64,000 nucleotides of DNA from an uncultured Caldilineales bacterium (GCA_964650295.1 CAZYSY010000208.1:35-64034); one strand, 5' to 3'; numbered from the stretch's first letter, positions 35,981 to 62,872 are shown. Translations and numbers: made by a program. Notes: a model not told the origin generated them from the sequence alone.

Positions 35981-36444
35981 TCATGTTCTCATCATGCAGC
36001 ACGCCTGTGTTTTGGCCTATCTGCGGCTGGCTCCCTAATGTGCCGAGCACACATGAATGAACCCCTCCAGGACCCGGCTATGCCTCTAGCACGGATCAAC
36101 ATTAAAAAGAACCTGCTCACAAATGCTCTTACCCTCATGCTTACCTGTTGTTCGTCTGCAACAAGAATAGCCTTGATTCAGTTGCTGCTTCAAAAAACGT
36201 TTGCTTAGGCAATGGCTTTATGCTAAACTTAAAGCGTTGCTCCCTTTCATATGCGTGATGCCCGAGGAACGTTTTGAGCCAACACCAGACCCAGGGGAGC
36301 CGGGTCATGCACTGGCCAACGTGATAGCCCTTGATTGGCAAGACTGAGGCTAGGCGTAGGCTCCCACCTGTTTCATACAGGTTCAAAAGCACCTGGGCAC
36401 ACGGTATGGAGGGGGGCGGAGAAATCACAATCTTTTTTCCACCT

Positions 36445-47412: not shown

Positions 47413-50145
47413 TTAAACAGTGACCTTGTGGTCCTCTTTATCTTCCTCGACTTCTACTTCTTCCCAGCCCGTGATCATACCCTCAACTGCAGCGAGTGGT
47501 GTGTGACCAGTCGTGGTGAGGTACATATGCATGATGACAAAGGCTGCAAAGGACCAAGCGACGAATGTGTGAATAGGTGCGATATAGCGCAAGCCGCCAA
47601 TAGCGTTTGAGAGTGCAGGCCATCTTTGAGCGCCCCAGATCAAGATTCCGGTGACAATCTGCAACGGTAACAGTACGTTGAGGATGGCAAGATAGGTGGC
47701 CTGTTGCAACGGGTTCATCTTGCGCTTTTCATTTTTCTCGAAGGGATGCGGTTCCCCCTTAAAAATGCCTTGGCCGTAAAACACCGCTTGTTGTAACGCT
47801 TGGTTGAAGAAACCTTTGGGTTCTGGTAGGAATTGCTGGATGGAATGTCCGGCCAAGAAGTAGAAGAGCGCAAAAAACGCGTTGAACAGTAGCAAGAAGC
47901 CTAGTACGTTGTGGATAGGCACCATTGCGCCCAGGTCCATGGCCCCAAACATGTCAGGACGATGGATGACGATACCAGTAAGAATCAGCAGAATGATGGC
48001 GATGGCTTGCGTCCAATGCCAGAACCGTTCATAAAATGTGTATAGATATAATTTGCGGGTCGGGCCGTTATGTGTGGCCGCGCCATGCGCAGCCGCATAC
48101 ACTCGCAGACCTCCATGGACAAACACGCCAGCGAAAACTCCTAGCATCATCAATACGCCTAACCAGTCAATCCATTTTACACGGTCGTGCCCAGGAAGAT
48201 AGAGCCCTTCTTTGGCCGTACTAGGTTGATAGTACAATTCTCCGTTCTTGCCCCGAACCAAGTCTCCAGTAGGCTCCATGTTTACATCGCCAACCAGGAC
48301 GGGGGTGACGCCACCTGGGGTGTAGCTAGCCAACATCATCGCATCTGAGACACGAGAATCTTCACTATGGCAGGCCGTGCAATCCTGTGTGGAATATTCT
48401 CCCCAGGTTGTGTTATGGGAAATGCTATATGGCTGCACCTCAGCCTGGATGCGAGGATTGTTGAGGCCTATCGCCTCCAACTGGGAGCGTACCACCTCTT
48501 CCTTTTCGGCATTATCGATGCGGAGCTCGGAGCGTGCGAGACGCCCGTCCTTGTTGATGTCAAAGGCGCTCACGATTTCTGTTTTGTAATTGCCGTCATC
48601 GCCAAAAAAGGCTTTCTTCAAATCAATTTGACGCACTGGCCGAGCCGGATCGCCATAAACCCAGTACCATGAGCTAACCAGGTTGAACGGAGCTAGCTTC
48701 AAATTACCTTCAGTGTCATATCTAGGCAGCAAGATGGGTTTAAACCCTTCCAACATGTTATAGGGATTGTGTGGGTTTCCGTCGCCTGTCACATTACGAT
48801 AGATAAGAATTCCTTTGCCGTCGCGGTCGATTACCGTCCAGTCGTTTTGCTGTATGGCTGTGGCGTGGATGGTTGGAATGTGGCAAGCCTCACAACTGAG
48901 CTTCTGAGCGTGGCGATCTTCGTACGGCAGCCAGGTGTGGGTTGATTTGTAATCATGGCACGATTCGCAACGACGCATACTTTCGGTGAAAGAAGAGCCA
49001 ACTTCGGTTTTAGTTACTGCACCACGAGCAAAATCGTGTATGGGTTTTTGCAGATAGTCAGAAATGTCAGGGCGGCGCGGTTCAAAGACAAGGTGTTGGG
49101 GATTCAGTTCCTTTGGCGGTTCATAGTAGGTGGGATTGTTCAGCGCGAAATGGCAGTCGGTACATTTAAGGTTCCGTTCTGCATGCACATCCCAGGAACG
49201 TTTGAGTTCGCTTTTCCCCTTGATGTTTAAGGCGCTATCCGAAATGCGTTGGCCAGAGAATATCTGCCCTGTACGCATGGTCGTCCAGTCATCTCTGTTG
49301 AAGTCGCGGTAGGAAAGTGCTGTAGTGATATCAGTCTGCACCTCGCCGTGGCATTGGCCGCAATTGCTGCTAGAGGGGCTTTGGATAGGAAGAACGTCTG
49401 GGTTGAGGTTGCCTTGCTCGTCGAACGCATCCTTGTTGTATATCATGCCCTTTCCGTCAGGAGCGGGTTGGACTATGCCTGTTCCCACCAGTGTCGCTGT
49501 ATTGGCCCAACCGAATGCGCCCTCTTTTAGCATGTTAATCCGGGCTGAATTGTTGGGCTTGGGCATGTGGCATAGGAAACAGTTCATTTCCACAGTTCCC
49601 GACTCCTTCCAATCCCAGGGCTCCAGCTGGCCTGTGAGCGGATTAAGAATGCTGGTTTCAGGATTGTCGGCGCTTGCCGACAACTCTTTGAGAGACAGTC
49701 CTTGACGGCTGGTTTCGGCTGGGCCTCCGCCAACAAAATGTGCTCCATACGCCTTGAGCCAACCAGCGGTGGTGAGATCAATGTTGCTGTCTTCTGTTGG
49801 GCTGAGATAACGGTAGGTGATGGGGTCCCAAAGGCCAAAAAGGCCATTGCTGGTATCCCACGGTCGCCCTGACGGCGCCTGGCCAGCTGGGAGCATTTGA
49901 TTCAAACCAACCTGGCTATGGAAGCTATGGCTTTCTATGAATTCTGTGTCATGGCAACTTCCACAAGTGTGCATGACTGAAACAGGTTTTCCCGACACAA
50001 GAACGTTGGTGCCATCTTCGTCCAATAGTGGAAATGTTGGATGGATGGGCGAGGGCTGTGCGGAAGCGACGCCCAGACTGACGAGAACCAGCATCAGCGC
50101 CAGCGCTGTCAGTCCCACGTAGCGCTTGAAGCTGTTGTGCATCAT
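47413..50145 (-). CDS. Heptaheme c-type cytochrome fused to a C-terminal di-heme cytochrome b membrane domain (CbcL-like putative quinol oxidoreductase)
   Basis: Signal peptide. Seven CxxCH motifs (CGSCH, CFLCH, CGQCH, CTDCH, CESCH, CEACH, CTACH). The C-terminal ~230 aa has 4-5 TM helices with conserved His (Ni/Fe-hydrogenase/FdnI-type cytochrome b-like). It overlaps the upstream gene by ATGA. Confidence 0.8.
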   Translation of the reverse strand: MMHNSFKRYVGLTALALMLVLVSLGVASAQPSPIHPTFPLLDEDGTNVLVSGKPVSVMHTCGSCHDTEFIESHSFHSQVGLNQMLPAGQAPSGRPWDTSNGLFGLWDPITYRYLSPTEDSNIDLTTAGWLKAYGAHFVGGGPAETSRQGLSLKELSASADNPETSILNPLTGQLEPWDWKESGTVEMNCFLCHMPKPNNSARINMLKEGAFGWANTATLVGTGIVQPAPDGKGMIYNKDAFDEQGNLNPDVLPIQSPSSSNCGQCHGEVQTDITTALSYRDFNRDDWTTMRTGQIFSGQRISDSALNIKGKSELKRSWDVHAERNLKCTDCHFALNNPTYYEPPKELNPQHLVFEPRRPDISDYLQKPIHDFARGAVTKTEVGSSFTESMRRCESCHDYKSTHTWLPYEDRHAQKLSCEACHIPTIHATAIQQNDWTVIDRDGKGILIYRNVTGDGNPHNPYNMLEGFKPILLPRYDTEGNLKLAPFNLVSSWYWVYGDPARPVRQIDLKKAFFGDDGNYKTEIVSAFDINKDGRLARSELRIDNAEKEEVVRSQLEAIGLNNPRIQAEVQPYSISHNTTWGEYSTQDCTACHSEDSRVSDAMMLASYTPGGVTPVLVGDVNMEPTGDLVRGKNGELYYQPSTAKEGLYLPGHDRVKWIDWLGVLMMLGVFAGVFVHGGLRVYAAAHGAATHNGPTRKLYLYTFYERFWHWTQAIAIILLILTGIVIHRPDMFGAMDLGAMVPIHNVLGFLLLFNAFFALFYFLAGHSIQQFLPEPKGFFNQALQQAVFYGQGIFKGEPHPFEKNEKRKMNPLQQATYLAILNVLLPLQIVTGILIWGAQRWPALSNAIGGLRYIAPIHTFVAWSFAAFVIMHMYLTTTGHTPLAAVEGMITGWEEVEVEEDKEDHKVTV

Positions 50146-51656
50146 TGTTGGCCTCCTGGCTGAGCATTGGCGTTTTCAAGCGTGGCATTGCGACTGCCGT
50201 AAATCATAGGGTCTCCTTCATATCCCAGCGCTTCCCAGTCCAGACGTCCTGGCGATCCGTCGGGAGTATGGCAGGCATTGCATTGCAGAGCATCTTCCTT
50301 GGGAGCCACCATATGGGTGGTTGGCCAATACATGGCTGTGCGAGCAAAACCGTAATCGCCACTATATGGGAGTCCAAAGGCTTTTGCTCCGTCGCTCAGC
50401 GCTTTGTCCCAATCGAAGTCACTCCAGTACCCTCCTGGGCCAAAGGTGTGGGGGGTGAGCAGAATATTGTATTGCTTGTCGTAGGGCTGAGTGGCGTGGT
50501 GTACCTTGAAGGGGAAAATTTTTGCAGTAGGATCATTAATGGAGCCCGCTGGGGCGTTTAGTACCAGCTCTTGGGATGGATCAAATCGATCTCCAATCAG
50601 ATATCGGTCTTCGAGCTTTCCGTTGTACCAGGTGTAGGTGGGAACAACATCGCGTTCATAGACAAACTTACCTTTGATTTTGAGGTATTCGTGCGGATTA
50701 GTGATTGGAAGATCTTTGCCAGCTTGGGACCAATCCCAATAGGTTTTTGTTGCCTCTTTTCGAGCAAAAGCTGGAATATGACAGGTTTGACATGCAACCG
50801 TTTGTGTGTGCATGTTGAGGCGGTCATCTTGATGGGGCGTTTCGCTGTGACAGTCGGTGCAATGCACCTGGTTCTCGTCATCCAGGCTGACGGAAATCGA
50901 ACGCCCTCTCATGACGTGATGCTCGGCGCGATGGCAGTCGGTACAAACCATGTCTTCTCCCCCCATGTGAACATCCAGTTCTCGCGTGGGGTTGATAAGG
51001 GAGTTGTCCAGGTCTCCGTGCTTAACTGCATCTCCTCCTCCCCCTCGAAAATGACAGGTGCCGCAATTAATGCGCGTTGGGGGGCCGACATGTTTGGCGA
51101 TGTTCACTAGATCAACCGATTCAGCAGGCACGCCCTTTTTGGCCTTCACATAATAGCCTGTATTGTCATGGCAGGCTAGGCAGTCTATATTTTTGGGCTC
51201 CGAAAAATCGAAGGTATCATTCTCCCAGCCATAGCCAGCATGACAGGCTGTACAGGCTGGCCAGTTTGGCTTGATGGTAATGCAGAAGTTGTTCAGCACA
51301 TGTCCCTTGCCAGTCTTTACAGGTTCTTTCAGACCTAATACGTTATCGTGCTCGCCCGGAACGTCATCCAGCGCATACTCGTGCGTCCATGTGAAGTGGT
51401 TGTTGTGCAGCATCTCTTCCCCTGCCTCAGGATGGCATTCCAAACAGGCTTCTGTAACATCCTGACCTGTCGTGAAGTCTGCCCCATTGAAGAAGCCACT
51501 ATGATCGGTGGGCATAGAGTGCCTTGGGAGATGTGCTCTGGGGTCGTCGATTTGTTGGGAAGATGCTTTTGGCACAGCAACCAGGGTGATGGGAACCCCA
51601 AAAATGATTAGGGTTATGAGGATACCTATAATCCAGTTTTTTTTGCCATGAAGCAT
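50142..51656 (-). CDS. Membrane-anchored octaheme c-type cytochrome (OTR/HAO-superfamily-like)
   Basis: N-terminal TM anchor and eight CxxCH motifs (CLECH, CTACH, CLACH, CGTCH, CTDCH, CTDCH, CQTCH, CNACH) in 504 aa. Confidence 0.8.
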   Translation of the reverse strand: MLHGKKNWIIGILITLIIFGVPITLVAVPKASSQQIDDPRAHLPRHSMPTDHSGFFNGADFTTGQDVTEACLECHPEAGEEMLHNNHFTWTHEYALDDVPGEHDNVLGLKEPVKTGKGHVLNNFCITIKPNWPACTACHAGYGWENDTFDFSEPKNIDCLACHDNTGYYVKAKKGVPAESVDLVNIAKHVGPPTRINCGTCHFRGGGGDAVKHGDLDNSLINPTRELDVHMGGEDMVCTDCHRAEHHVMRGRSISVSLDDENQVHCTDCHSETPHQDDRLNMHTQTVACQTCHIPAFARKEATKTYWDWSQAGKDLPITNPHEYLKIKGKFVYERDVVPTYTWYNGKLEDRYLIGDRFDPSQELVLNAPAGSINDPTAKIFPFKVHHATQPYDKQYNILLTPHTFGPGGYWSDFDWDKALSDGAKAFGLPYSGDYGFARTAMYWPTTHMVAPKEDALQCNACHTPDGSPGRLDWEALGYEGDPMIYGSRNATLENANAQPGGQQ

Positions 51657-51799
51657 AAGCCTTACCTCACTGTAATGTCGGTGTGTATGGGGCTCAGGCT
51701 TCCTGCCGGGTTTGGGTTTGGCTCAGCTAGCGGGAAGGCTGAAATAAGGTAGAAGTGTTGTTTGGTATAGATTAAAAAAAATTGTTTGATGGCTAATTG

Positions 51800-51817
51800 T
51801 TTGATGGTGATATCAAA
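51800..51817. promoter_or_regulatory. Candidate ArsR/SmtB-type operator: TTTGAT-N6-ATCAAA inverted repeat, overlapping a direct repeat ttgtttgatgg x2 (51783-51808)
   Basis: Read directly in the 184-nt gap between arsR-like and the octaheme gene. Confidence 0.3.
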
Positions 51818-51840
51818 TGGACTTGCGCGTTTTACGTCGG

Positions 51841-52191
51841 TCAGTGGGCCTCCTTTGAAGTAGAAGATATTTGGTTGAGAAGTTTAGAGTGAGAGTTGAT
51901 ACGTTCATTTAGGACATCCCGCAAAAGCTCTAGAGCCTGAATGACGCGGATATCACTGAGTTCATATACGACTTCGCGCCCACGGCGCTCGAAGCTGACC
52001 AGTCCACTGTTGCGGAGAATGCGTAAGTGGCGAGAGACTGTGGATTGTGGAAGACGCAGGCGGGTTGTCAGGTCCGTGACATTGCTGGGGCGCTCCGAGA
52101 GGGCATAAAGGATAGCGATGCGGTTTGGGTCAGAAATCCCTGAGCATAGTTCAGCATGCATTCGGGCGATTTCTGCTCGTCGTGGGATCAT
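51841..52191 (-). CDS. ArsR/SmtB-family metal/redox-sensing transcriptional repressor
   Basis: Winged-helix HTH 'NRIAILYALSERPSNVTDLTTRLRLPQSTVSRHLRILRNSGLV' with a Cys in the N-terminal region. AAGGAG sits before the ATG. Confidence 0.85.
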   Translation of the reverse strand: MIPRRAEIARMHAELCSGISDPNRIAILYALSERPSNVTDLTTRLRLPQSTVSRHLRILRNSGLVSFERRGREVVYELSDIRVIQALELLRDVLNERINSHSKLLNQISSTSKEAH

Positions 52192-52798
52192 CAGGGCGCT
52201 CCTTGGCTACAAACAATTTATCCGGAAATGCGGATACACGCATTCACAGTATTTTAATCTTTTTCACCCCACTCCCATATGATATCGATCATGTTTGGAA
52301 GCTCTATCACATTTTTTGTTAATCTTGCGAGTGTATCCCAATCAAATTTCGATGCTTGCCAATACTGCTGCGTGAGCTTTTGGTGAACGCTTTAGGCTTT
52401 TCGGCATAAATACGCCTGCCTTGTTAGCGCATTCCACAGTTCTACTAGATTGTGATCCATACCCAGCAACTCTGAAAGGTTTACAAGCTCTTGGGTAAAT
52501 GTTGGGAGAACTGTTGGCCAAATCGGCGTGAAAAGTTTCATGTGGTTACATAAATATTTTACACGTTTGCGCTAATCATGGAAATTGGCGGTTGACGGTG
52601 AGCGCGACATCGTTCTAACCTGAGATGTTCACGAGCATAAACTCAACGCAAACCTTGCTCTGGAAAAAAGTCGCCTCTCGGAGTATTCCGCGAATACGCG
52701 TGAAGCACTTTCTCATCTAGCGCACTGCGCCATCCACATTCTGATTTGGTATGGTTAATTGCGAAATGGGTGGTAGAGACCGGTTATATTGGGCGGAA

Positions 52799-53713
52799 TT
52801 ATGTTTTTTCTTCGAAAAGTTCTTGTAAACGCGGGACTTGTTGTAACATCTCCGTTTCGCTGAACGTCGCCTCCCAAAATGGTCCAATGCCTCCGCACTC
52901 CAGCGAAACGACCCATGGTTTTTGCCATGAACCAGATTGCAATTGCATTGCAGCCCATTTCATGATGCTCCAATCTCTGTTCGTCAATGGAAGGTGATCA
53001 ATCATTCCGTTGGGCAGCCAAGCACCATCAGGGCCAATGAGTTTTTCGAGTTTGGAGCGCTCAAGGCCGTTTTTTTCAGCACGTTGTATCCAGTATTCAT
53101 TTACTACTTGTATTCCGGTGACGTGAATTTCACGTACGGCATGCAAAGGGAGCGCTGCGATGTACTCGCGATATCCCAAACCCAATTGCATGGCAGCCAT
53201 CCGGGCGTGAGAGATATCAAAGAGGAATCCGGTTCCAGTTTCCTCAACAACCCGCGTGATTGTGTCTGCGTGGAAGATGGCATAGTCGTTCCTTGCCCCC
53301 AAGTGGTAACCGTTTTCAAGAATAATCATCTCTTTTCCAAATCGAGAGACGACAGATTCTACATCTCGAATCATGCGCTCCTGCACTTGTTCGGCAGTTA
53401 TGTGATTCTCACTCTCGGGGGTGTCGCTCCTCAACTCCCCTTCGGAGAGGATGTGTAGATTCAGGTAAGGGGTATCTGTCTGTTCTAGCAGTCTTTCGAA
53501 TTTTGGCCAGTCCGCGGGCCTTTTTGTCTCTACGTCGATGGCGTCACCGATTCCCGCACCTACGCCTAAGGGAAAGTGAATGTAGATGGGAAAGTTACCT
53601 CTAAGTCGTGTTATGAGTTCGGGCCATGCAGGGCATTTGAAAACATCGGGCCTGATTAGGCCTTGGGTGGTTAGCTTCGCCGCAGTTTCCGAATAGTTGA
53701 GTCCAAATTTCAT
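52799..53713 (-). CDS. DUF692-family (multinuclear non-heme iron oxidative enzyme, MNIO-like) TIM-barrel protein
   Basis: Motifs 'ILENGYH', 'FLFDISHARMAA' and 'EIHVTG' parallel the conserved DUF692/xylose-isomerase-like metal-binding strands. The start was set to ATG at 53713 (MKFGLNYS) because the longer track ORF would overlap the upstream gene by 118 nt. Confidence 0.5.
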   Translation of the reverse strand: MKFGLNYSETAAKLTTQGLIRPDVFKCPAWPELITRLRGNFPIYIHFPLGVGAGIGDAIDVETKRPADWPKFERLLEQTDTPYLNLHILSEGELRSDTPESENHITAEQVQERMIRDVESVVSRFGKEMIILENGYHLGARNDYAIFHADTITRVVEETGTGFLFDISHARMAAMQLGLGYREYIAALPLHAVREIHVTGIQVVNEYWIQRAEKNGLERSKLEKLIGPDGAWLPNGMIDHLPLTNRDWSIMKWAAMQLQSGSWQKPWVVSLECGGIGPFWEATFSETEMLQQVPRLQELFEEKT

Positions 53714-53721
53714 TGTCGGTC

Positions 53722-54249
53722 TTACTCTCTTGTAATTTTCTTTTTGAAGATACCAAAACGGATATTCTTCCCTGCAATATGGTTTCGCAAGGGTTCTGGC
53801 GACAATTTGAACCCGAGTTTTTTCCAGAAACGCATCCATTCTGCATCATTCAAAGGGACCGCCGTACGGAGTTCGATCGTAGGAGAAGCAATTCGCAGCC
53901 ATTCTTCCAGGATATTGACGCTCCACGTGGCGATTTCCTCTCTCTCACCCGGAGTTTGGTCTTGCAGAATGAGGGCACCCAGCCAGACTACATTCTCCAC
54001 CGGATGGTGGAATCGAAAATCCAATGCACCAATAAGTTGTTCATCTTGCCACCAGATAGCCATGATTGCTCGATCGTCACTTTCTAACATCTGTTGGTAG
54101 TCGTTCACAGCCTGAATCGTAGAAGCGGGATGGCTGGTGAATGTGATGAAATATTTTCTACTGGCCTCATACATGCGTTGCAAGTCGGCTAGCATTTCTG
54201 TAGTGAGTGGCTTCAGCTTAATGGGGGGAGGCTGAGTTGTCGTTGGCAT
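53722..54249 (-). CDS. GNAT-fold acyltransferase-like protein (175 aa)
   Basis: GNAT-like secondary-structure pattern (…PLTTEMLADLQRMYE…AIMAIWWQDEQLIGALDFRF…VWLGALIL…). It is tightly coupled to both neighbours, with 3-nt and 8-nt gaps. Confidence 0.4.
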   Translation of the reverse strand: MPTTTQPPPIKLKPLTTEMLADLQRMYEASRKYFITFTSHPASTIQAVNDYQQMLESDDRAIMAIWWQDEQLIGALDFRFHHPVENVVWLGALILQDQTPGEREEIATWSVNILEEWLRIASPTIELRTAVPLNDAEWMRFWKKLGFKLSPEPLRNHIAGKNIRFGIFKKKITRE

Positions 54250-54252
54250 TAT

Positions 54253-55128
54253 TTATCGTCTCTCGGCATATTCGAAAGTTTGGCGTAGTTTGATGATTGT
54301 GTTGGCCGGATAGTAGCCTTTAGGAAGGGAAGCACTGGCGTAAAGTAATGTATTTGGGCCAATGAGGACGCCTGGGTTCAAAACGCTGTTGCATCCTGTT
54401 TGTACGTCATCTCCGAGAATGGCTCCCAGTTTGGTCAGCCCTGTGTCATGCACCCGGTCCAAAATCTTTATTTTTATACTCGGACGCCGGCCTGTTAGAG
54501 GGTCTTTGCGGCTGACCACCGTCAGGTTCGAGAGTTTTGTTCCGGCTCCTAAGTTCACCCTATTTCCCAAAATGCTATCTCCAACATAATTGAAATGAGG
54601 TGCATGTGCACCTGGAAGCAGGATGCTGTTCTTCACCTCCGTGGCGTGCCCGACCATACTGCCTTCGCAAAGTAATGCGTTTGATCGAATATATGCACCA
54701 TGTCTTACCAAAGTTCGTGGGCCAATATATGCTGGGCCTTCAATATACGCACCTGATTCAACCACCGCGCCAGGCCCGATATAAACATCCGTATCGGGCT
54801 TGATGTAGGCTCCATCAGCGACATCTCCAAAAATCTGGCAACCTTTACCGCCAATATGTGCTTCGAGATAGTTGGCAAGTTTGGGCAAGGCCTCCCAGAC
54901 ATAACCAATATCCCGAAAGAGTGGTGCATGGGGGGTATGTGACAGGTCGAAAAAATCACTGGGCGCGAGTTTTGGTGACATCGTGAACGCTCCAATCTGC
55001 ATTTCACGGGGTAAGATATTGGGCAAAGGCTGGTTCCCTGGGCATGTCTCCATTTGATGCTCGGGATCGACATTCATCATACATGCCATCACCCTAGCCT
55101 TCAAAATCACGCCTCCTTTGGATTTCAT
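54253..55128 (-). CDS. Left-handed beta-helix (hexapeptide-repeat) acyl/nucleotidyl-transferase family protein (start uncertain)
   Basis: Multiple [LIV]-G-x-x-x-x hexapeptide repeats (…YIGPGAVVESGAYIEGPAYIGPRTLVRHGAYIRSNALL…). Candidate starts are ATG 55128, or TTG 55107 after AAGGAGG. Confidence 0.65.
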   Translation of the reverse strand: MKSKGGVILKARVMACMMNVDPEHQMETCPGNQPLPNILPREMQIGAFTMSPKLAPSDFFDLSHTPHAPLFRDIGYVWEALPKLANYLEAHIGGKGCQIFGDVADGAYIKPDTDVYIGPGAVVESGAYIEGPAYIGPRTLVRHGAYIRSNALLCEGSMVGHATEVKNSILLPGAHAPHFNYVGDSILGNRVNLGAGTKLSNLTVVSRKDPLTGRRPSIKIKILDRVHDTGLTKLGAILGDDVQTGCNSVLNPGVLIGPNTLLYASASLPKGYYPANTIIKLRQTFEYAERR

Positions 55129-55321
55129 GGGTGCGGCCTTCAGGTCAGAGCGTATCGACTGGTCTAGTGTTGCATACGGCAAGGTGCACTTCAAGAAATG
55201 GGAACGCTTCTTTCCAGGCCGACCCAAGTAGGACCAGTGTGTCATTAGACAAAGTGTCCCGAAAATGAAACGCCCCTACGGAATCCTGGTTTGCTTTCGT
55301 GGCTGAGTTTGGGTATGATGG

Positions 55322-56014
55322 TTGTGTCTAATAGCGATCACGTCTCCGATAACTTTTATGGTTAAACACATCCATTTAATATTTTTTTTGTTCGCCATCC
55401 TGGCCCTGGTATTCTTGGCTTTTGGTTACTGGGGAAGCTGGATAGCGCATCCGGCTGCCGGGTTAAATATCCTGGGTGTTGATCTTCCTGAATACGTCAA
55501 ATTTGTGCCTGAAGTGCGAGATGGGATTATTTCCCTCAATCGATTAATTTTCTTTGCCATACCCGTTGCACTGGCCCTTGGGCTGATATTTTTGGCTAGC
55601 GTAAGAGCGGTTTTGCCTCTATGGATTCGTGGTGTGGCAGCCGCGTCGGCATTGCCTGTAGCACTTTCAATGTTGCCTCCAGCCTGGTCTCCTGGTTTAT
55701 TGATGACGTCTGAATTTCGTGTACAAACCATCATCATACTGGGTCTTATTGTCTCAGTATTCTTGATTCCAGTGTGGAAGCAAGTTATTCCTGATTGGCT
55801 GCGTGGTGCTCTTTTTATTTTGATATCCCTGTTTCTTTTACCCGCATTACGGTCCTTCTTCCTGCTTTTGCCAGCGTTGGAAAAGCTTTACCACCGTTCT
55901 TTGCTTGCTGCTGGCCCTGGCGTTTGGTGGACCGTTACAGGGACGGCTTTGATGCTTTTGGCTGGCGGATTGCTCCTCTTGACGGATGTGCGGTTTGCTC
56001 GTGATGGTTGTTAA
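55322..56014 (+). CDS. Integral membrane protein of unknown function (~6 TM)
   Basis: Hydrophobic segments throughout, with no recognisable motifs. Confidence 0.45.
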   Translation: MCLIAITSPITFMVKHIHLIFFLFAILALVFLAFGYWGSWIAHPAAGLNILGVDLPEYVKFVPEVRDGIISLNRLIFFAIPVALALGLIFLASVRAVLPLWIRGVAAASALPVALSMLPPAWSPGLLMTSEFRVQTIIILGLIVSVFLIPVWKQVIPDWLRGALFILISLFLLPALRSFFLLLPALEKLYHRSLLAAGPGVWWTVTGTALMLLAGGLLLLTDVRFARDGC

Positions 56015-56166
56015 TAAAGATTAGTGAGTAAGGTGAGGATCGATATTTGTGCTGGACCCTCAGTTTGGCGGGTGTCCTCCTGGGCGTGTAGCTTGACAAA
56101 AAAAAGGTTTTCATCGAAGATTAGATTACTTATCTCTGCTTTCCAACCTTTATCCAGTCAGAGGCT

Positions 56167-59100
56167 GTGATGACAACATTTTCCCCCTATGAGTCTATTC
56201 AAGATGTTGTACGGCGTCGGCAAAATGCTGGTTTTGTTGGGCGCTTCCAGTATATCGAGCGCTTTCAACAGAACTTGAGCAAGGATTTTGATGATCCAGA
56301 TCGACGATACATTTTTGTGGTGACGGGCGAGTCCGGTACGGGTAAGACCTGGCTTTTGCATCAGCTTCAGCGTCGCCTCGAACTTGAGTCTGGTGCTTGG
56401 GCGGTGTGGGACAGTGGCAAAGCAGAAGGTCCGCTTGCTGTGATGGTTCATCTCGCCGAGCAATTTGCACGTCTTGGCCTTACCATGCCTACTTTTGCTG
56501 AAGCCTACCAACGATATCTTAATTCCTTACGATATCTGGCTGAGCGACTCGACCAGTCATCTGGTGTACGCTTTTTTGTTGCCAATAGCCTCGTTGATGC
56601 TCCCGTCCGATGGCAGCACACGGATTCAGAGTGGGGCATCATCGCAACAGCCGATTTGCAATCGCTTTTTGATGATCAACTGCGCTTCCGAGAGAAATTG
56701 CCTCGACAGCTATTAGCTGATGAGCAGACCTACCAGCTGGTGAGTGATCCTGTTCGCTCTTTTACACCGCTGTGGTTGGCCGACTTGCGAGCACTAGCGA
56801 AAAAAGACGTGCTGGCTTTGTTCTTTGATGATGTCCATGCCGCGGGCGACTGGCTGGAAGATTGGTTGTTTCAAATCTTTTCTGGTGAATTCGGAGAGAC
56901 GCCGACTGCCACGCTTTGGGTGTTGAGCTCCGCTCAGCCTATTGATGTCCAGCGATGGCAGCCTTTGTCCGACGTTGTGGCTCGCTTTGTGCTCAAGCCC
57001 CTGTGTCAAAAAGATGTCGATGATTTTCTCCGGCGTTTTGGTGGTGAACTCTCCGCTGAGGGCGCAGTGAGGTCACAGTTAGATGAGGCCGCACCTGCTG
57101 ATTTGATCGTATTGGCCTCCTACCGTAAGATTTTTCAGCGTGATTTACCAATGACTGCTACCAGCGATCCCTTGGGTTTGCTTTTTGAGTCGCTTTCACC
57201 TGAGCAACAACGGGTTTTGGCGATCTCTGCCCTTCCGGATCTGCTTACACGGGCCGGGTTAGGCAAACTTTTACGCGTGTCCTCCGAACACCCGCTCATT
57301 GATTGGTTTTTCTCACTTCCTCTGGTGCAGCCATTGAGTACTGGGTGGCACATGTCCGGTGCCATACGACAGGAGTTGTTGGAGCTCGGAAGGAAGAAAG
57401 TGCCAGAGGCAGTTTCTGACGCATTGTCAATCATCGCTGCAGATTGGCGGCGCCATGGAGACGCATTGCAGCATTCTGGTCCAGCTAGCTGGGCTGATTT
57501 GTCCTGGAGAGAGGCGTGGCTGACGCATTTGCGTTATCGTCTATTGCAAGATGCAGAAACCTATCTGGGCATGGCTCTTGATGCTGCACTTCCTACTATG
57601 GAGATGAACCCCGCCTGGACTAAAAGCCTGGCTCGCACCCTTCTGAATGCTAGCGATGAAGGGGCTGGCGATGAAGTTAGGGCATGGGGGGAAAGGTTGT
57701 TCAACGGCGCCGAGGCGCTCTCTACGGCCAACTATCAAGGGGCGTTGGCATTGGTGAATGCGCTTATCGATGAAGCTGAATTGGAGCCACATCGATTGAG
57801 TCAGGCGCTTGGCATGAAGGCCTGGCTTTTGCGAGCACAACAACAGATGGAGGAAGCCCTTGAGTTCTACACCCAGGCAGAAGACTCAAAGCATAGCCCT
57901 GCTTGGTTGGCGGCTCAGCGTGCAGCCACTCTTTATTTGATGGGGCAGCGTTCAAAGGCTGGCGAGGTTCTCACCTTCGCCCTTGAACAGAAAAATGATT
58001 TGGATTGGGCGCTTGCACTACGCGGCTGGCTGTCGTTTGAAGAAATGAAGCTTGCTGCTGCTCGAGATGATTTTTCTGCCGCCCTCTCATTGAACAGTGA
58101 CCAATTGATTTGGGCACTGCCATTTCGGGCTGAGATTAGCAGACGCTCTGGCAATTATGAAGGTGCGTTATCTGATCTCAACCTTGCGCTTGACAAGTTT
58201 TCGGATCGGGCCTGGATGTATGCTTTGCGCGGCGTTGTTCTGCGGGAGCTTGATCGCTTTGAAGAGTCATTATCCGATTTCGACAAAGCTCTTAGTTTAG
58301 AGCCCGATAGTGTTTGGATAATCGCACAGCGCGCTCAATCACTAGAAGCCAACGGTCAAGAGGAGTTGGCGTTACAGGTCTATGCTCAAGCACTTGAATT
58401 AGCCCCTGATGATGTTTGGACTTTAACTCGCCGTGGCATTTTGTTGCAGAATATGGGGCGTCATCACGATGCTTTGCAGGACCTCAATCGGGCTGTTGAG
58501 TTAGATTCCTCAGATGCTACACCTTTGGTTGCACGGGCTGCGTTACACCAATCACAAGGCGAGCATCTACTAGCATTGGGTGACCTTGACGCCGTTGTTG
58601 CAATGCAGCCAAACAATAAGGATTTGCTCAGAAGTCGTGCTGCCAGTCGCATTCAGCTACGACAGTATGAGGATGCGGTTGATGATTTGACTCGGGCATT
58701 GACGCTAGAACCAGGTAACAAGGATTTGTTGATTTTGCGCAGTCAGGCTTTTATTGGATTGGGGCAGTTGGATGATGCACTGACAGATATCAATGCGGTT
58801 CTGCATGCCCATCCAAACGATCCCGATGTTCTGGTCTACCGTGCTGATGTGTATCGGCGAATGGGGCAATTTGAAAAAGCGCTTGATTACCTCAACCAAG
58901 TACTGTTAGAACATCCTCAGCATGTCCGTGCATTGGCTCAGCGGGGCGATGTCTATCGGCTGATGATGCGCAACGAAGAAGCGGTTTCGGATTTTGCCCG
59001 CACGTTGTCCATTGATCCTGACAACAGTTGGACACTGGCCCGTCGTGCTGATGTTTACCGCCGAATGGATCGATATCAGGAGGCCCTGGCTGATTTTGCG

Positions 59101-60789
59101 CGTGCGTTGGCAATCAATCCCAGTGATGCATGGGCATTGGCGCATCGTGGTGAAACCTATCGCCAGATGAATGAGTTGGACTTGGCCTTACGTGACTTTA
59201 CTCGTTCCATTGATCTTGATCCTACAGATCCCTGGTCCTGGTCTGGGCGTGGCGAGACATATTGTGAGTTGGGAGAAACCGAAAAAGGCGTGGAAGATTT
59301 TTCTCGGGCATTAGAACTTACTCCCGATGACCCACTCTTATTGGAGTTGCGCGGCGCTGCTTTGGTGGAACTCGATCGAAACGAGGAGGCTTTGGCTGAC
59401 TTCAGTCGGGCGTTGCCATCTCACCCCGATCAAGGTGCATTGCTGACAATGCGGGGCGAGTTACTGTTGAAGTTGCATCACTATAAAGAGAGTGAGGCCG
59501 ACTTAAATCAGGCGTTGACTCTGAACCCCAGTAATGTGGCAGCGCTGATTGCTCGGGGGAGGTTGTTACGTGCGCTAAAGCGCTACAGTGATGCCTTGGT
59601 GGATATGGATCGGGCCATCTCCCTTGATCCCAACAATGGCTGGGCAATGGCTTATCGTGGGGAGCTACATCGGCTATTAAAGCGTTATCATGCTTCTCTT
59701 ACTGATCTTACTGGCGCCCTTACTCTTCTTCCCGATGAACCATGGATTTTGGCGCAAAGAGGTGAATCTCATCGGCTCTTGGGGATGTACGCCGAGGCTC
59801 TATCCGATCTTACCCGTTCTCTGGAACTTCGCCCGAACGATATTTGGACGCTTGCGACACGGGGGCAGGTCTACCGAACCATGGGAAGGTATGATGAGGC
59901 TTTGGATGATTTTAGCAAAGCTATCGAGTTGAGTCCCCGTTACGCCTGGGCGTATGCTAGCCGCGGTGAGACGCTGCGAGTGCTAAAGCGGTACGACCTG
60001 GCCTTGGCTGATTTAGACCGCGCATTGGAGTTGGATCCCGATATGACCTGGGCCTTGGTTAATCGAGGTCAAGTGCATCTGGCGATGAAGAATGCCGAAG
60101 CCGCCTTTGAAGATTTCGATCGGGCAGTCTCCTTGAGCCCCAATTATGCTTGGGCGCTTGCTGGACGAGGACAGGCTAATCGTATGTTGGGACAACTTGA
60201 TGCGGCTCTCGATGATTTCCATCAGTCCATTGCCATCAACCCTAACTTTGTGTGGGCTTTGGTCAATCGTGGGCATGTTTTCCGGCTGCTGGGTGAATAT
60301 AAACGCGCTTTGGCTGATTTTGACCGTGCCATATCGCTTGATCCGAACAACGCGTGGGCAGTTGCTGGTCGCGCCCAGGTAAATCGCACTTTACAGCGTT
60401 ATGATCAAGCTCAACAAGATATTGGCCGGGCAATTGCGCTTACTCCCGATTTGGATATCGATCTCTTTCAGCGGGCAATCACACAGCAGCTGCAAGGCGA
60501 GGTGGAAGGCGCCCGAGCTGATCTTGATGAAGCAATTGGTATCGCTGAACCGGTTTATGAAATCGATCCAACTAACTGGCGCAATACATTCAATCTTGCT
60601 CTGTACTATCTTGCGCGCGGGCGCAGAACCATGGCTGAGCGATTGTATAGGCAAGGTTTGGGCGCTCCCGCACCACTGGCCGAAATCAAAGGCGCTGAAC
60701 GCAGCCTACAAGATTACTATGCTCTTTTCCCAGATAACACCGCAGCCTATGCTATGTTGCAGATGATACGCGACTATCTCAACGACTAA
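56167..60789 (+). CDS. Giant STAND-type P-loop NTPase (AAA_16/NB-ARC-like) followed by about 27 tetratricopeptide repeats; no effector or HTH domain
   Basis: Walker A 'VVTGESGTGKTWLL' near residue 60. From about residue 470 to 1400 there are regular 34-aa TPR units (…AWALAHRGETYRQMNELDLALRDFTRSIDLDPTD…). Confidence 0.8.
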   Translation: MMTTFSPYESIQDVVRRRQNAGFVGRFQYIERFQQNLSKDFDDPDRRYIFVVTGESGTGKTWLLHQLQRRLELESGAWAVWDSGKAEGPLAVMVHLAEQFARLGLTMPTFAEAYQRYLNSLRYLAERLDQSSGVRFFVANSLVDAPVRWQHTDSEWGIIATADLQSLFDDQLRFREKLPRQLLADEQTYQLVSDPVRSFTPLWLADLRALAKKDVLALFFDDVHAAGDWLEDWLFQIFSGEFGETPTATLWVLSSAQPIDVQRWQPLSDVVARFVLKPLCQKDVDDFLRRFGGELSAEGAVRSQLDEAAPADLIVLASYRKIFQRDLPMTATSDPLGLLFESLSPEQQRVLAISALPDLLTRAGLGKLLRVSSEHPLIDWFFSLPLVQPLSTGWHMSGAIRQELLELGRKKVPEAVSDALSIIAADWRRHGDALQHSGPASWADLSWREAWLTHLRYRLLQDAETYLGMALDAALPTMEMNPAWTKSLARTLLNASDEGAGDEVRAWGERLFNGAEALSTANYQGALALVNALIDEAELEPHRLSQALGMKAWLLRAQQQMEEALEFYTQAEDSKHSPAWLAAQRAATLYLMGQRSKAGEVLTFALEQKNDLDWALALRGWLSFEEMKLAAARDDFSAALSLNSDQLIWALPFRAEISRRSGNYEGALSDLNLALDKFSDRAWMYALRGVVLRELDRFEESLSDFDKALSLEPDSVWIIAQRAQSLEANGQEELALQVYAQALELAPDDVWTLTRRGILLQNMGRHHDALQDLNRAVELDSSDATPLVARAALHQSQGEHLLALGDLDAVVAMQPNNKDLLRSRAASRIQLRQYEDAVDDLTRALTLEPGNKDLLILRSQAFIGLGQLDDALTDINAVLHAHPNDPDVLVYRADVYRRMGQFEKALDYLNQVLLEHPQHVRALAQRGDVYRLMMRNEEAVSDFARTLSIDPDNSWTLARRADVYRRMDRYQEALADFARALAINPSDAWALAHRGETYRQMNELDLALRDFTRSIDLDPTDPWSWSGRGETYCELGETEKGVEDFSRALELTPDDPLLLELRGAALVELDRNEEALADFSRALPSHPDQGALLTMRGELLLKLHHYKESEADLNQALTLNPSNVAALIARGRLLRALKRYSDALVDMDRAISLDPNNGWAMAYRGELHRLLKRYHASLTDLTGALTLLPDEPWILAQRGESHRLLGMYAEALSDLTRSLELRPNDIWTLATRGQVYRTMGRYDEALDDFSKAIELSPRYAWAYASRGETLRVLKRYDLALADLDRALELDPDMTWALVNRGQVHLAMKNAEAAFEDFDRAVSLSPNYAWALAGRGQANRMLGQLDAALDDFHQSIAINPNFVWALVNRGHVFRLLGEYKRALADFDRAISLDPNNAWAVAGRAQVNRTLQRYDQAQQDIGRAIALTPDLDIDLFQRAITQQLQGEVEGARADLDEAIGIAEPVYEIDPTNWRNTFNLALYYLARGRRTMAERLYRQGLGAPAPLAEIKGAERSLQDYYALFPDNTAAYAMLQMIRDYLND

Positions 60790-61378: not shown

Positions 61379-62872
61379 CTAAAATTCTTCCTCCACCAAT
61401 ACCATCAGCCCTGAACCGTCGCTATCGTAGTGCATTCTTCCTTGAGGGACATGGCTATCGATGACGAGTCGGGCGCTATCCATAGCTTCCCAAATAATTT
61501 GGAAAGGGGCTTTGCCCGGCGCCCATTTCTCGGCAATGACGACGCCGTGTCCGGGCAGGATGGTGAAGGCGATCTGGCGGGGATCGTCGGGGTTGAGCAG
61601 GCATTGCGCCCGGGAGAACGCGTCGCGCACGCCCTTGGCCTGGGCCTCGGTCGCGCACGAGACGATGAAGTCGAAGTATTGGGGCTCCAGCGGCGCGTAT
61701 TCCACCAACGCCGGATCGAAAGACCATACGCCGCGATGCCCGTGCAGCTTGGAGCGCACCACCGGAACCTCGGCCTCGAAGTCCCATTCGGGCGGGCTCA
61801 GGTGGATGCGGGGCAGCGGTGCGTCCATGTCCATCATCTCCACCGCTTCGGAGGAGGGGGGATCGTTGCGCTTGCCATCCACATGACGCACGATGGCCCC
61901 GGCCCGACCCGGGCGCACGCCCACGATGATGGCCAGATCATCCTCGGTGATGTTGTCCTTATCCACCGGGCGGGCGCTGCCTGTGACGGTGGCGATGAGC
62001 CCGTTGATGCGCGGCTCCCATGTGCCGAAGCAGCCCTCGCTGTACTGACTGGCCACAGCGTCCTGCACCGCAGGCACAGCCACTAAATCATTGATGCGCA
62101 CCATCTCGGTGAAAAATTTGCGCTTGCCCAGCTCCAGTGCGGCGTAGCGCATGGCCCTGGGCGCGGGCCAGGACGCCCACTCCTCATAGGGGATGGGATC
62201 GCCGACGACCTGATGATCGGTGACCTCGCGCGTGCTGATCGTGGTGATCAACCGCAAAGCGATGTCGTGATAGAAGAGTGTGGGATCGTCTCGGTTGACG
62301 CTCTTGGGATAAGCGCCCACCAGATCGAAATGATAGACGTAATCGGGATGATCGTTCCCCACCACCAGCAGTACGCGCAAGCCCATGGCCTGGGCCTGCA
62401 CCCGCCGCTCTAGCGCCAGAATCGGCCCGCCCCGGCGCCCCTGCTCGAAAAGCACGCGATACGCCTCGGACGCCAATCCGGGAAAGTCGTAATCCGCGGG
62501 ATCAGGCGGCTCCTTTTCCAGCACCTTTTCCAGATAATCCAGATCAGCCTGCAAGCGTTCAGGCGTCACATGCACCAGCGTGTAGACGGTGGGATTTTTG
62601 CTGAGCTTGAACTTGCGCCGCGCGGTCAGCACCATGGACTGCCGCCAGTTCAGGGGCACGCCATATTCCGCTGTGGTCAGCAGAATGTCGGTCTCATCCG
62701 TGGGAACGTCTTGCACAGTGTGTCCCAGCAGCCGGAAACTCTGCAAAACGCCCTGGGCGGTCTCTTCCAAAACCGGATCGAGAGGCCCGGGCGCAAAAGT
62801 GACGTGAAGATGTTTCAACCCGGAATGCAGGTGCTTATTCAGATTGAGGGTGATAGGGAGCGAATCAGCCAT
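61379..62872 (-). CDS. Hypothetical protein, 497 aa, no recognised domain; GC-rich
   Basis: Long ORF with strong third-position G/C bias. The plus-strand ORFs 61430-62086 are antisense shadows of this gene. Confidence 0.5.
   Translation of the reverse strand: MADSLPITLNLNKHLHSGLKHLHVTFAPGPLDPVLEETAQGVLQSFRLLGHTVQDVPTDETDILLTTAEYGVPLNWRQSMVLTARRKFKLSKNPTVYTLVHVTPERLQADLDYLEKVLEKEPPDPADYDFPGLASEAYRVLFEQGRRGGPILALERRVQAQAMGLRVLLVVGNDHPDYVYHFDLVGAYPKSVNRDDPTLFYHDIALRLITTISTREVTDHQVVGDPIPYEEWASWPAPRAMRYAALELGKRKFFTEMVRINDLVAVPAVQDAVASQYSEGCFGTWEPRINGLIATVTGSARPVDKDNITEDDLAIIVGVRPGRAGAIVRHVDGKRNDPPSSEAVEMMDMDAPLPRIHLSPPEWDFEAEVPVVRSKLHGHRGVWSFDPALVEYAPLEPQYFDFIVSCATEAQAKGVRDAFSRAQCLLNPDDPRQIAFTILPGHGVVIAEKWAPGKAPFQIIWEAMDSARLVIDSHVPQGRMHYDSDGSGLMVLVEEEF

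Follow-up and report, generated by a model that had tools for sequence, protein, structure and literature searches.

What does an enzyme of the MNIO (DUF692) family do when it is encoded next to two acyltransferase-like genes, with neither a helper protein nor a precursor peptide beside it? The question is raised by a locus in a stretch of 64,000 nucleotides (nt) from an uncultured Caldilineales bacterium (GCA_964650295.1 CAZYSY010000208.1:35-64034), hereafter the window, by which the whole analysed stretch is meant, with positions counted from its first letter. The MNIOs characterised so far act on ribosomally made peptides or proteins (PMC12452194), in most cases aided by a DUF2063-type protein. 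Genome mining for the family assumes this logic of a peptide plus a DUF2063 helper. The gene studied here codes for a protein of 304 amino acids (aa) and lies outside any canonical MNIO cluster for peptides that are ribosomally synthesised and then modified after translation (RiPPs). We give an about even chance to the reading that its product is a partner-less metalloenzyme of the MNIO superfamily that acts on a small molecule of the sugar, polyol or amino-sugar type and is no RiPP maturase, the substrate and class being read from the gene context only.

Relatives were collected by a scan of one genome per species, which returned 205 encoded MNIO relatives, of which 80 were kept. The loci are numbered from L001 onwards, and some counts below are given for the first 83 and for L086-L106; a metagenome scan with an alignment of the neighbouring GNAT-fold protein gave only 18 loci. 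The MNIO relatives come mostly from metagenome-assembled genomes (MAGs) that carry Chloroflexota labels (Anaerolineae, Caldilineales, Thermomicrobiales, Chloroflexia); a few have other labels. The nearest relatives of the window, which is an ENA metagenome contig, are MAGs labelled Anaerolineae and Caldilineales.

The first-pass annotation, made from the sequence alone, had called the 304-aa protein DUF692/MNIO-like and had named as its alternative a divergent xylose-isomerase-like TIM-barrel enzyme, taking a missing PF05114 match as the sign of a sugar-phosphate isomerase/epimerase homologue. The search with hidden Markov models (HMMs) upholds the call, as PF05114 (MbnB_TglH_ChrH) is matched with 40.6 bits (gathering score 25), over profile positions 42-210 of 263 only, and PF01261 has no match at E <= 0.1. 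PF05114 is likewise matched by 113 of 113 family homologues (best E 2.5e-17), 10 of which also match PF01261 weakly (best 1.3e-5). The scores against the curated NCBIfam models are far under their cut-offs (bits/cut-off: BufB 42.7/310, ApyH 38.5/400, HvfB 21.6/360, MbnB 13/325, and ChrH 12.2/600). With the family profile as query, the PDB returned the DUF692 protein 3bww (E 5e-7), MbnB (9e-5) and TglH (6e-3), and endonuclease IV at E 0.48 only. The AlphaFold2 (AF2) model of the protein is a TIM barrel (pLDDT 93.3, pTM 0.92), for which the best Foldseek matches in the PDB are TglH (1e-10), MbnB (1e-8 to 1e-6) and 3bww (2e-6), followed at lower ranks by STM4435, ketose 3-epimerases and endonuclease IV; the TM-scores are modest (0.56-0.68). 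Taken by its profile matches and its predicted fold, the 304-aa protein is a genuine but remote member of the MNIO superfamily.

Two alignments of MNIO homologues (17 and 113 sequences) were used to find conserved positions. H46, H87, D166, H169, E195, H197, and E272 are invariant in both, as is a K26-C27-P28-x-W30 motif; E133, D239, and H240 are invariant in the alignment of 17 and reach a conservation of at least 90% in that of 113. The ligands of MbnB are His54, His90, Glu133, Asp163, Asn166, His192, Asp208, His210, and Glu239 (PMC9060507). In the HMMER alignment, E133, D166, and H197 fall on Glu, Asp, and His ligand positions of MbnB and H169 on its Asn ligand; H87 aligns with a His of 3bww, and H46, D239/H240, and E272 are matched to MbnB ligands by their order along the sequence only. 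The metal-ligand positions are therefore apparently kept, and may converge on one site.

The ORF list (ORF, open reading frame) and a direct reading of the junctions give three co-directional genes on the minus strand, in the order LbH, GNAT-fold, MNIO-like, and a gene remnant beyond them:

52799-53713, minus strand: divergent MNIO/DUF692 (PF05114) TIM-barrel metalloenzyme, 304 aa (Pfam, family profile, AF2 and Foldseek)
53722-54249, minus strand: GNAT-fold protein, 175 aa, without Cys (AF2 model and Foldseek)
54253-54981, minus strand: LbH (hexapeptide) acyltransferase, 242 aa, stand-alone, start probable (Pfam, NCBIfam, PDB homology, homologue lengths and a GGAG)
52419-52767, minus strand: remnant of a CHAD-domain gene, a pseudogene (tblastn with the CHAD proteins of L004 and L001)

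Between the LbH stop codon (TAA, 54253-54255) and the start codon of the 175-aa gene (ATG, at 54249) lie 3 nt (ata), and 8 nt (gaccgaca) separate the stop codon of the 175-aa gene (TAA, 53722-53724) from the MNIO-like start codon (ATG, at 53713), so the tight coupling that had been described, with spacers of 3 and 8 nt, is borne out. Of the span of 52200-55245 that had been given for the string, the upstream end probably does not hold, since 55245 is where the longest LbH ORF begins. That ORF has 330 aa, with an extension of 88 codons beyond 54981. The ATG at 54981 is preceded by a GGAG 8 nt upstream, and the best 120 of at least 7,847 LbH homologues, leaving aside the 330-aa ORF of the window itself, are 225-274 aa long (mostly 237-245 aa) and covered nearly in full. 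Because of these homologue lengths and the GGAG, the LbH gene is probably 54253-54981, and the extension up to 55245 is probably not translated. The longest MNIO ORF similarly begins at 53839 and overlaps the GNAT gene; in the homologues the start is always the methionine of MKF, and hence the 304-aa form (52799-53713) is taken as the gene. Promoter and terminator scans gave background level only.

The absence of a DUF2063-type partner and of a precursor, which had been noted in the window, extends well beyond it. No DUF2063, RRE or TIGR04222 was found in the genes called within ±10 kb of the string, where Pfam families of the other partner kinds (PME type 2, MbnC, Anthrone_oxy) are not on record either, and no DUF2063-type partner, RRE or precursor showed up in about 100 orthologous or related loci. 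The precursors of MNIO clusters usually contain Cys and often have a Sec signal. Among the 125 genes that immediately flank the MNIO in 65 loci, DUF2063, RRE, peptidase, and exporter families are missing from the top 25 families, and even the commonest family accounts for at most 7 genes. No neighbour of 70 aa or more is conserved across the 80 species loci beyond the subset with PLD, LbH, and GNAT genes. The annotation of small ORFs across orthologous loci, which had been suggested as a check, gave no conserved small ORF within ±1.2 kb of 78 loci, the clusters being shadow frames of LbH, GNAT, PLD, and ADH genes. A polytopic membrane protein of 230 aa, encoded upstream of the string and divergently transcribed (55322-56014, plus strand), was considered as a TIGR04222 protein and rejected, as it has no NCBIfam match; it has no Pfam match either and is not conserved beside the string elsewhere.

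What surrounds the MNIO genes may instead point to small molecules, as in a sister clade of 11 loci, where the tight co-directional neighbours are a zinc alcohol dehydrogenase (Zn-ADH; 7 loci), a GH42 beta-galactosidase (6), a short-chain dehydrogenase/reductase (SDR; 5) and a FAD_binding_2 oxidoreductase (4). The order is GH42-SDR-Zn-ADH-MNIO-FAD_binding_2 oxidoreductase, and strings of this kind are seen in L028, L049, L050, L057, L064, L065, L070, and L080, with the MNIO at about 6001 in most. They look like carbohydrate-catabolic operons, with DHDPS-family, PF01261 and NAD-epimerase genes nearby. Small-molecule enzymes of the PF01261 type occur in operon contexts that resemble those of the sister clade. 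Elsewhere, tight co-directional neighbours of the MNIO include Zn-ADH, Era GTPase, GDPD, GH20, GT2, aldo-keto reductase, and NAD-epimerase genes. In the clade of the window, the small-molecule context consists of the neighbouring LbH protein, of the sugar-1-phosphate acetyltransferase type, and of a GT4 glycosyltransferase upstream in L002 and L087.

The principal competitor of the small-molecule reading is a peptide- or protein-modifying MNIO that needs no separate partner, as is reported for MovX, and whose substrate gene lies in another part of the genome. It can appeal to the PF05114 membership and to TglH and MbnB as the closest structures, to the fact that all characterised MNIOs modify peptides or proteins, with the partner-less MovX on record (PMC12452194), and to large protein substrates, which are also proposed for MNIOs (PMC12452194). 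Nevertheless, we consider it unlikely. The published survey, which covers about 14,000 PF05114 proteins and describes as partners PME types 1 and 2, plus precursors, looked for precursors and partners among the direct gene neighbours of the MNIO; by its account, the bufABC order is strictly conserved in bufferin clusters, and MNIO followed by the partner is the most frequent order (PMC12452194). In the about 100 loci studied here, no precursor or partner gene is seen. Moreover, MovX has an extra winged-helix-turn-helix domain, and the present family consists of the barrel alone (about 300 aa); the scores of 12-43 bits against cut-offs of 310-600 set it apart from the curated MNIO subfamilies, and the tight neighbours of its genes are redox and carbohydrate enzymes.

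The same survey, as far as searched, does not mention this branch, nor does it link MNIOs to PLD or CHAD. Its main text does not mention Chloroflexota, acetyltransferase, hexapeptide or GNAT (PMC12452194), the searchable part of its supplements has no Hexapep, Acetyltransf, PLDc or CHAD entries, and in the part of its co-occurrence table that was covered the Chloroflexota genomes (Dehalococcoides, Roseiflexus, and Anaerolinea thermophila) have zeros in every column (PMC12452194). A literature search found no publication that joins 'MNIO' and 'Chloroflexota', and the lineage is unmentioned in the MNIO papers searched.

A precursor gene might have been expected in the AT-richer 600 nt downstream of the MNIO gene, where a tiny ORF of 33 aa had been pointed out. 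The ORF exists (MKLFTPIWPTVLPTF, minus strand, 52392-52541), although with 49 aa rather than 33, and it is a fragment of a CHAD gene, aligning with '...LSPIWPEVLSCVTQELVLLSELLGLDHDL...' of CHAD. When the CHAD proteins of L004 and L001 were searched against the window with tblastn, they matched 52419-52733 at E 1e-18 to 2e-18 and 52678-52767 at 3e-4. The remnant is broken by in-frame stops and by a change of frame and lacks about 200 of 319 residues, whereas an intact CHAD orthologue reaches 99.6 bits with Pfam CHAD; the region is therefore a pseudogene and no precursor locus. The CHAD pseudogene explains the apparently empty 600 nt, and with no Rfam match in 51500-56500 either, a precursor at this place is ruled out.

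The two upstream genes had been labelled hexapeptide-repeat acyltransferase and GNAT-like, and both labels stand. The LbH protein scores 59.7 bits with Pfam Hexapep PF00132 (threshold 27) and matches the C-terminal domain of PDB 2ggo/5z09 (ST0452/archaeal GlmU) at E 1e-27. With NCBIfam Arch_glmU it reaches 163 bits (cut-off 292), over model positions 211-391 only, and the N-terminal nucleotidyltransferase domain of the bifunctional GlmU type is absent from the 242-aa protein. With at least 7,847 matches its family, mostly labelled Chloroflexota, is very large, and it is well conserved, the best 120 matches being 59-75% identical. The 175-aa protein stays below the Pfam Acetyltransf_4 cut-off (21.1 against 24.3 bits), which one orthologue exceeds (25.9 bits). 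Structure prediction, proposed as a way of telling a GNAT from an MbnC/partner fold, gave an unambiguous GNAT: the AF2 model (pLDDT 93.5) has the canonical topology beta1-alpha1-alpha2-beta2-4-alpha3-beta5-alpha4-beta6-7, and Foldseek returned 562 PDB matches at E <= 1e-3, of which all 50 listed are GNAT-type acetyltransferases, with 3exn as the best (E 8e-12, TM 0.74/0.83), followed by SpeG, PaiA, and RimL. A DUF2063/MbnC-like or RRE partner is ruled out for this protein by its fold. It contains no Cys, and its beta4-alpha3 segment is QDQTPGEREEIATW (family consensus D-E-x-P-x-D-R-D-E-I-G-x-W-A), in which, by inspection, the canonical acetyl-CoA motif Q/R-x-x-G-x-G/A is missing, there being no G-x-G/A three residues past the Arg. 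The family is tiny (37 clusters in a word search; out of 1.84 billion proteins, only 3 representative clusters reach E <= 1e-30), and the 175-aa protein belongs to a narrow, lineage-specific GNAT-fold family.

Could the acyltransferases take the place of the missing partner and precursor? In this alternative, the GNAT-fold protein would be a new MNIO partner in a complex, and material acylated by LbH and GNAT would be the MNIO substrate. It is suggested by the short spacers of the window and by stop and start codons overlapping by 4 nt in L002, L008, and L009, by the persistence of the string while the identity of the MNIO drops to 39-46% (L002, L053, L077, L102), and by the missing canonical motif, owing to which the GNAT could be non-catalytic. 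The distribution of the genes makes it improbable. Of the first 83 loci, only about 13 have LbH and/or GNAT genes next to the MNIO, and both are absent near the MNIO in about 65 of the 80 species loci. The GNAT gene is 3' of the LbH gene in every locus where upstream sequence exists, also where no MNIO is present (L086, L087/L088, L101), and LbH occurs alone in L084; on contig JAYRVO010000092.1, the MNIO (L022) and a GT4-LbH-GNAT string (L087) are about 92 kb apart. A GT4 glycosyltransferase gene is upstream of LbH in L002 as well, and in four loci a 344-aa DUF7309+DUF6930 protein is encoded between LbH and GNAT (L005, 3245-4279; L010, 357-1391; L097, 322-1353; L099, 2779-3810). LbH and GNAT thus form a fixed pair, found also where the MNIO is missing, and the three genes are no obligate unit; in addition, the fold of the 175-aa protein is that of a GNAT, neither RRE nor DUF2063. 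Given the vast LbH family, the LbH-GNAT pairs without MNIO, and the many MNIOs without both, the two acyltransferases do not seem to stand in for partner and precursor as a dedicated three-gene system.

The loci in which LbH and GNAT are linked to the MNIO usually continue 3' of it with the gene of a secreted LTD/PLDc_2 protein (about 650 aa) and then with CHAD. In full, the ancestral string reads LbH-GNAT-MNIO-secreted LTD/PLD phosphodiesterase-CHAD, from which the window has lost the PLD gene and kept a decayed CHAD, with the MNIO intact; L095 is GNAT-MNIO-CHAD, with PLD missing and CHAD intact. About 20 loci have an LTD/PLDc_2 gene directly downstream (15 among the first 83 and 5 among L086-L106), and CHAD follows in at least 9. 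MNIO-PLD without LbH or GNAT is seen in L020 and L037. LbH-GNAT-PLD without the MNIO is found in L103 (103-3143), and in L086 (5001-6777) LbH-GNAT is followed by an apparent short PLD fragment, from which we conclude that the MNIO is a facultative insert in the string. In a neighbour-joining (NJ) tree, every MNIO linked to LbH, GNAT or PLD falls in one clade of 19 members with a bootstrap of only 29/100, and a core clade (at least 56% identity) has 100/100.

These phosphodiesterase genes raise a further alternative, a phosphoesterase like endonuclease IV, with a trinuclear metal site and no oxidative chemistry, which would act with LTD/PLD, GDPD, and CHAD in phosphate or phospholipid-headgroup turnover. 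Besides the recurrence of LTD/PLDc_2 and CHAD just described, a second kind of phosphodiesterase, GDPD, abuts or overlaps the MNIO start in L021 (5225-6001), L030 (5237-6004), and L071 (5234-5998), which come from different parts of the NJ tree. The family also has a His where MbnB has Asn, which gives what we take to be the H-H-E-D-H-H-D-H-E ligand pattern of endonuclease IV, and endonuclease IV is among the Foldseek matches of the 304-aa model (5zhz, E 3e-5). At the sequence level, however, endonuclease IV falls to E 0.48 against 5e-7 for DUF692. The PLD protein has a signal peptide and the MNIO has none, placing them in different compartments; in the window, the MNIO is intact although PLD is lost and CHAD decayed, and the contexts with ADH, GH42, and FAD genes are off the phosphate theme. 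We regard this alternative as improbable too and rank it last, behind the GNAT-partner system, which the modularity of the string weakens, and the trans-acting maturase, which carries the most weight of the three.

Several points weigh against the small-molecule reading itself. Its sugar-catabolic context comes from the sister clade (36-45% identity), outside the window's own clade, and in other clades housekeeping genes (era, ribF), uninformative on function, lie nearest. Phosphate scavenging would suit the recurring phosphodiesterase and CHAD neighbours equally well. The adjacency of LbH, GNAT, and MNIO may have been inherited as synteny; the NJ clade of linked loci has a bootstrap of only 29/100. 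All MNIOs characterised so far have a peptide or protein as their substrate (PMC12452194, Table 1), and a precursor could be encoded elsewhere in the genome. The first-pass annotation had proposed a non-canonical substrate, either acylated or a small molecule, and it is the latter part that keeps indirect support from the sister-clade contexts.

Under the small-molecule reading, the conserved His/Asp/Glu multinuclear metal site would act on a sugar-, polyol- or amino-sugar-type molecule by oxidation or by isomerisation/elimination, and the members of the branch would do without both a DUF2063-type partner and a ribosomal precursor encoded beside them. In the clade of the window, the MNIO gene would have been appended to a pre-existing, translationally coupled pair of LbH (GlmU-C-terminal type) and GNAT genes; in the window, the PLD gene is lost and the CHAD gene decayed. 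Any functional link of the MNIO to LbH and GNAT is inferred from this context only. That we have here the first MNIO lineage to act on a free small molecule, alone, and coupled to an LbH/GNAT acylation step in the clade of the window, is possible, with the balance leaning against it.

Outside the string, the window contains a 6S/SsrS RNA gene (36238-36419, plus strand) that matches Rfam RF00013 over its full length with 50.7 bits (gathering 46.4), the sole gathering-level Rfam match in the window. Two adjacent multihaem cytochrome genes (47413-51656, minus strand) code for proteins of 504 and 910 aa, the latter in fusion with a cytochrome b membrane domain of the Ni_hydr_CYTB type; both are just downstream of an ArsR-family regulator (51841-52191), with Sulf_transp/rhodanese genes next. 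A protein of 1,540 aa (56167-60789, plus strand), for which no Pfam match is on record, consists largely of TPR-like repeats and has in its N-terminal region a 'GESGTGKT' motif that is P-loop-like by eye. An ORF of 497 aa (61379-62872, minus strand), without Pfam match, spans a patch with an unusually high G+C of 0.62-0.67 against about 0.50 around it.

The branch comprises about 200 species-level representatives, mostly labelled Chloroflexota, in which the metal-ligand positions appear to be kept, and in which neither helper nor precursor was found. If the small-molecule reading is true, multinuclear non-haem iron chemistry extends to primary or small-molecule metabolism, and caution is needed before PF05114 genes are automatically labelled as RiPP clusters.

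Compared with known systems, the LbH protein resembles the C-terminal domain of ST0452/archaeal GlmU over the whole LbH domain, with its hexapeptide repeats, but differs by being a stand-alone protein of 242 aa with no nucleotidyltransferase domain. The 175-aa protein has the full topology of small GNATs (the TTHA acetyltransferase 3EXN, SpeG, PaiA, RimL; TM 0.74-0.83), yet is only 11-18% identical to them, under the Pfam threshold, and without the canonical pyrophosphate-binding motif. The PF01261 TIM barrels (ketose 3-epimerases, STM4435, the 3-keto-glucal hydratase AtHYD) share the superfold with the 304-aa protein as the next-best Foldseek matches (E 3e-7 to 4e-4); they have a mono- or dinuclear sugar-isomerase ligand set, whereas the 304-aa protein has up to nine positions and MNIOs rank first among its matches. 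Haemophilus somnus HS_1138 (3BWW, an uncharacterised DUF692 protein) shares the fold and is the best PDB profile match (E 5e-7), although this match is limited to residues 70-204 and the identity is about 15% in the structural alignment. MovX, which makes Vibrio methanobactin-like peptides, is alike in having no separate partner protein (PMC12452194, Table 1), but it comes with an extra winged-helix domain and with a precursor next to it, neither of which is found in the 304-aa family. With the MNIO RiPP maturases (MbnB, TglH, HvfB, BufB, ApyH, ChrH), the 304-aa protein has in common PF05114 and a TIM barrel near TglH/MbnB, and with MbnB in particular the aligned E133, D166, and H197 and the matching order of H46, H87, D239/H240, and E272. 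It differs from them by an identity of less than 20%, by a His for the Asn166 ligand of MbnB, and by a locus that lacks both a partner of the DUF2063, MbnC or PME type and a neighbouring precursor; and where the maturases have RiPP genes as neighbours, the MNIOs of this branch are accompanied by redox, carbohydrate, and phosphodiesterase genes.

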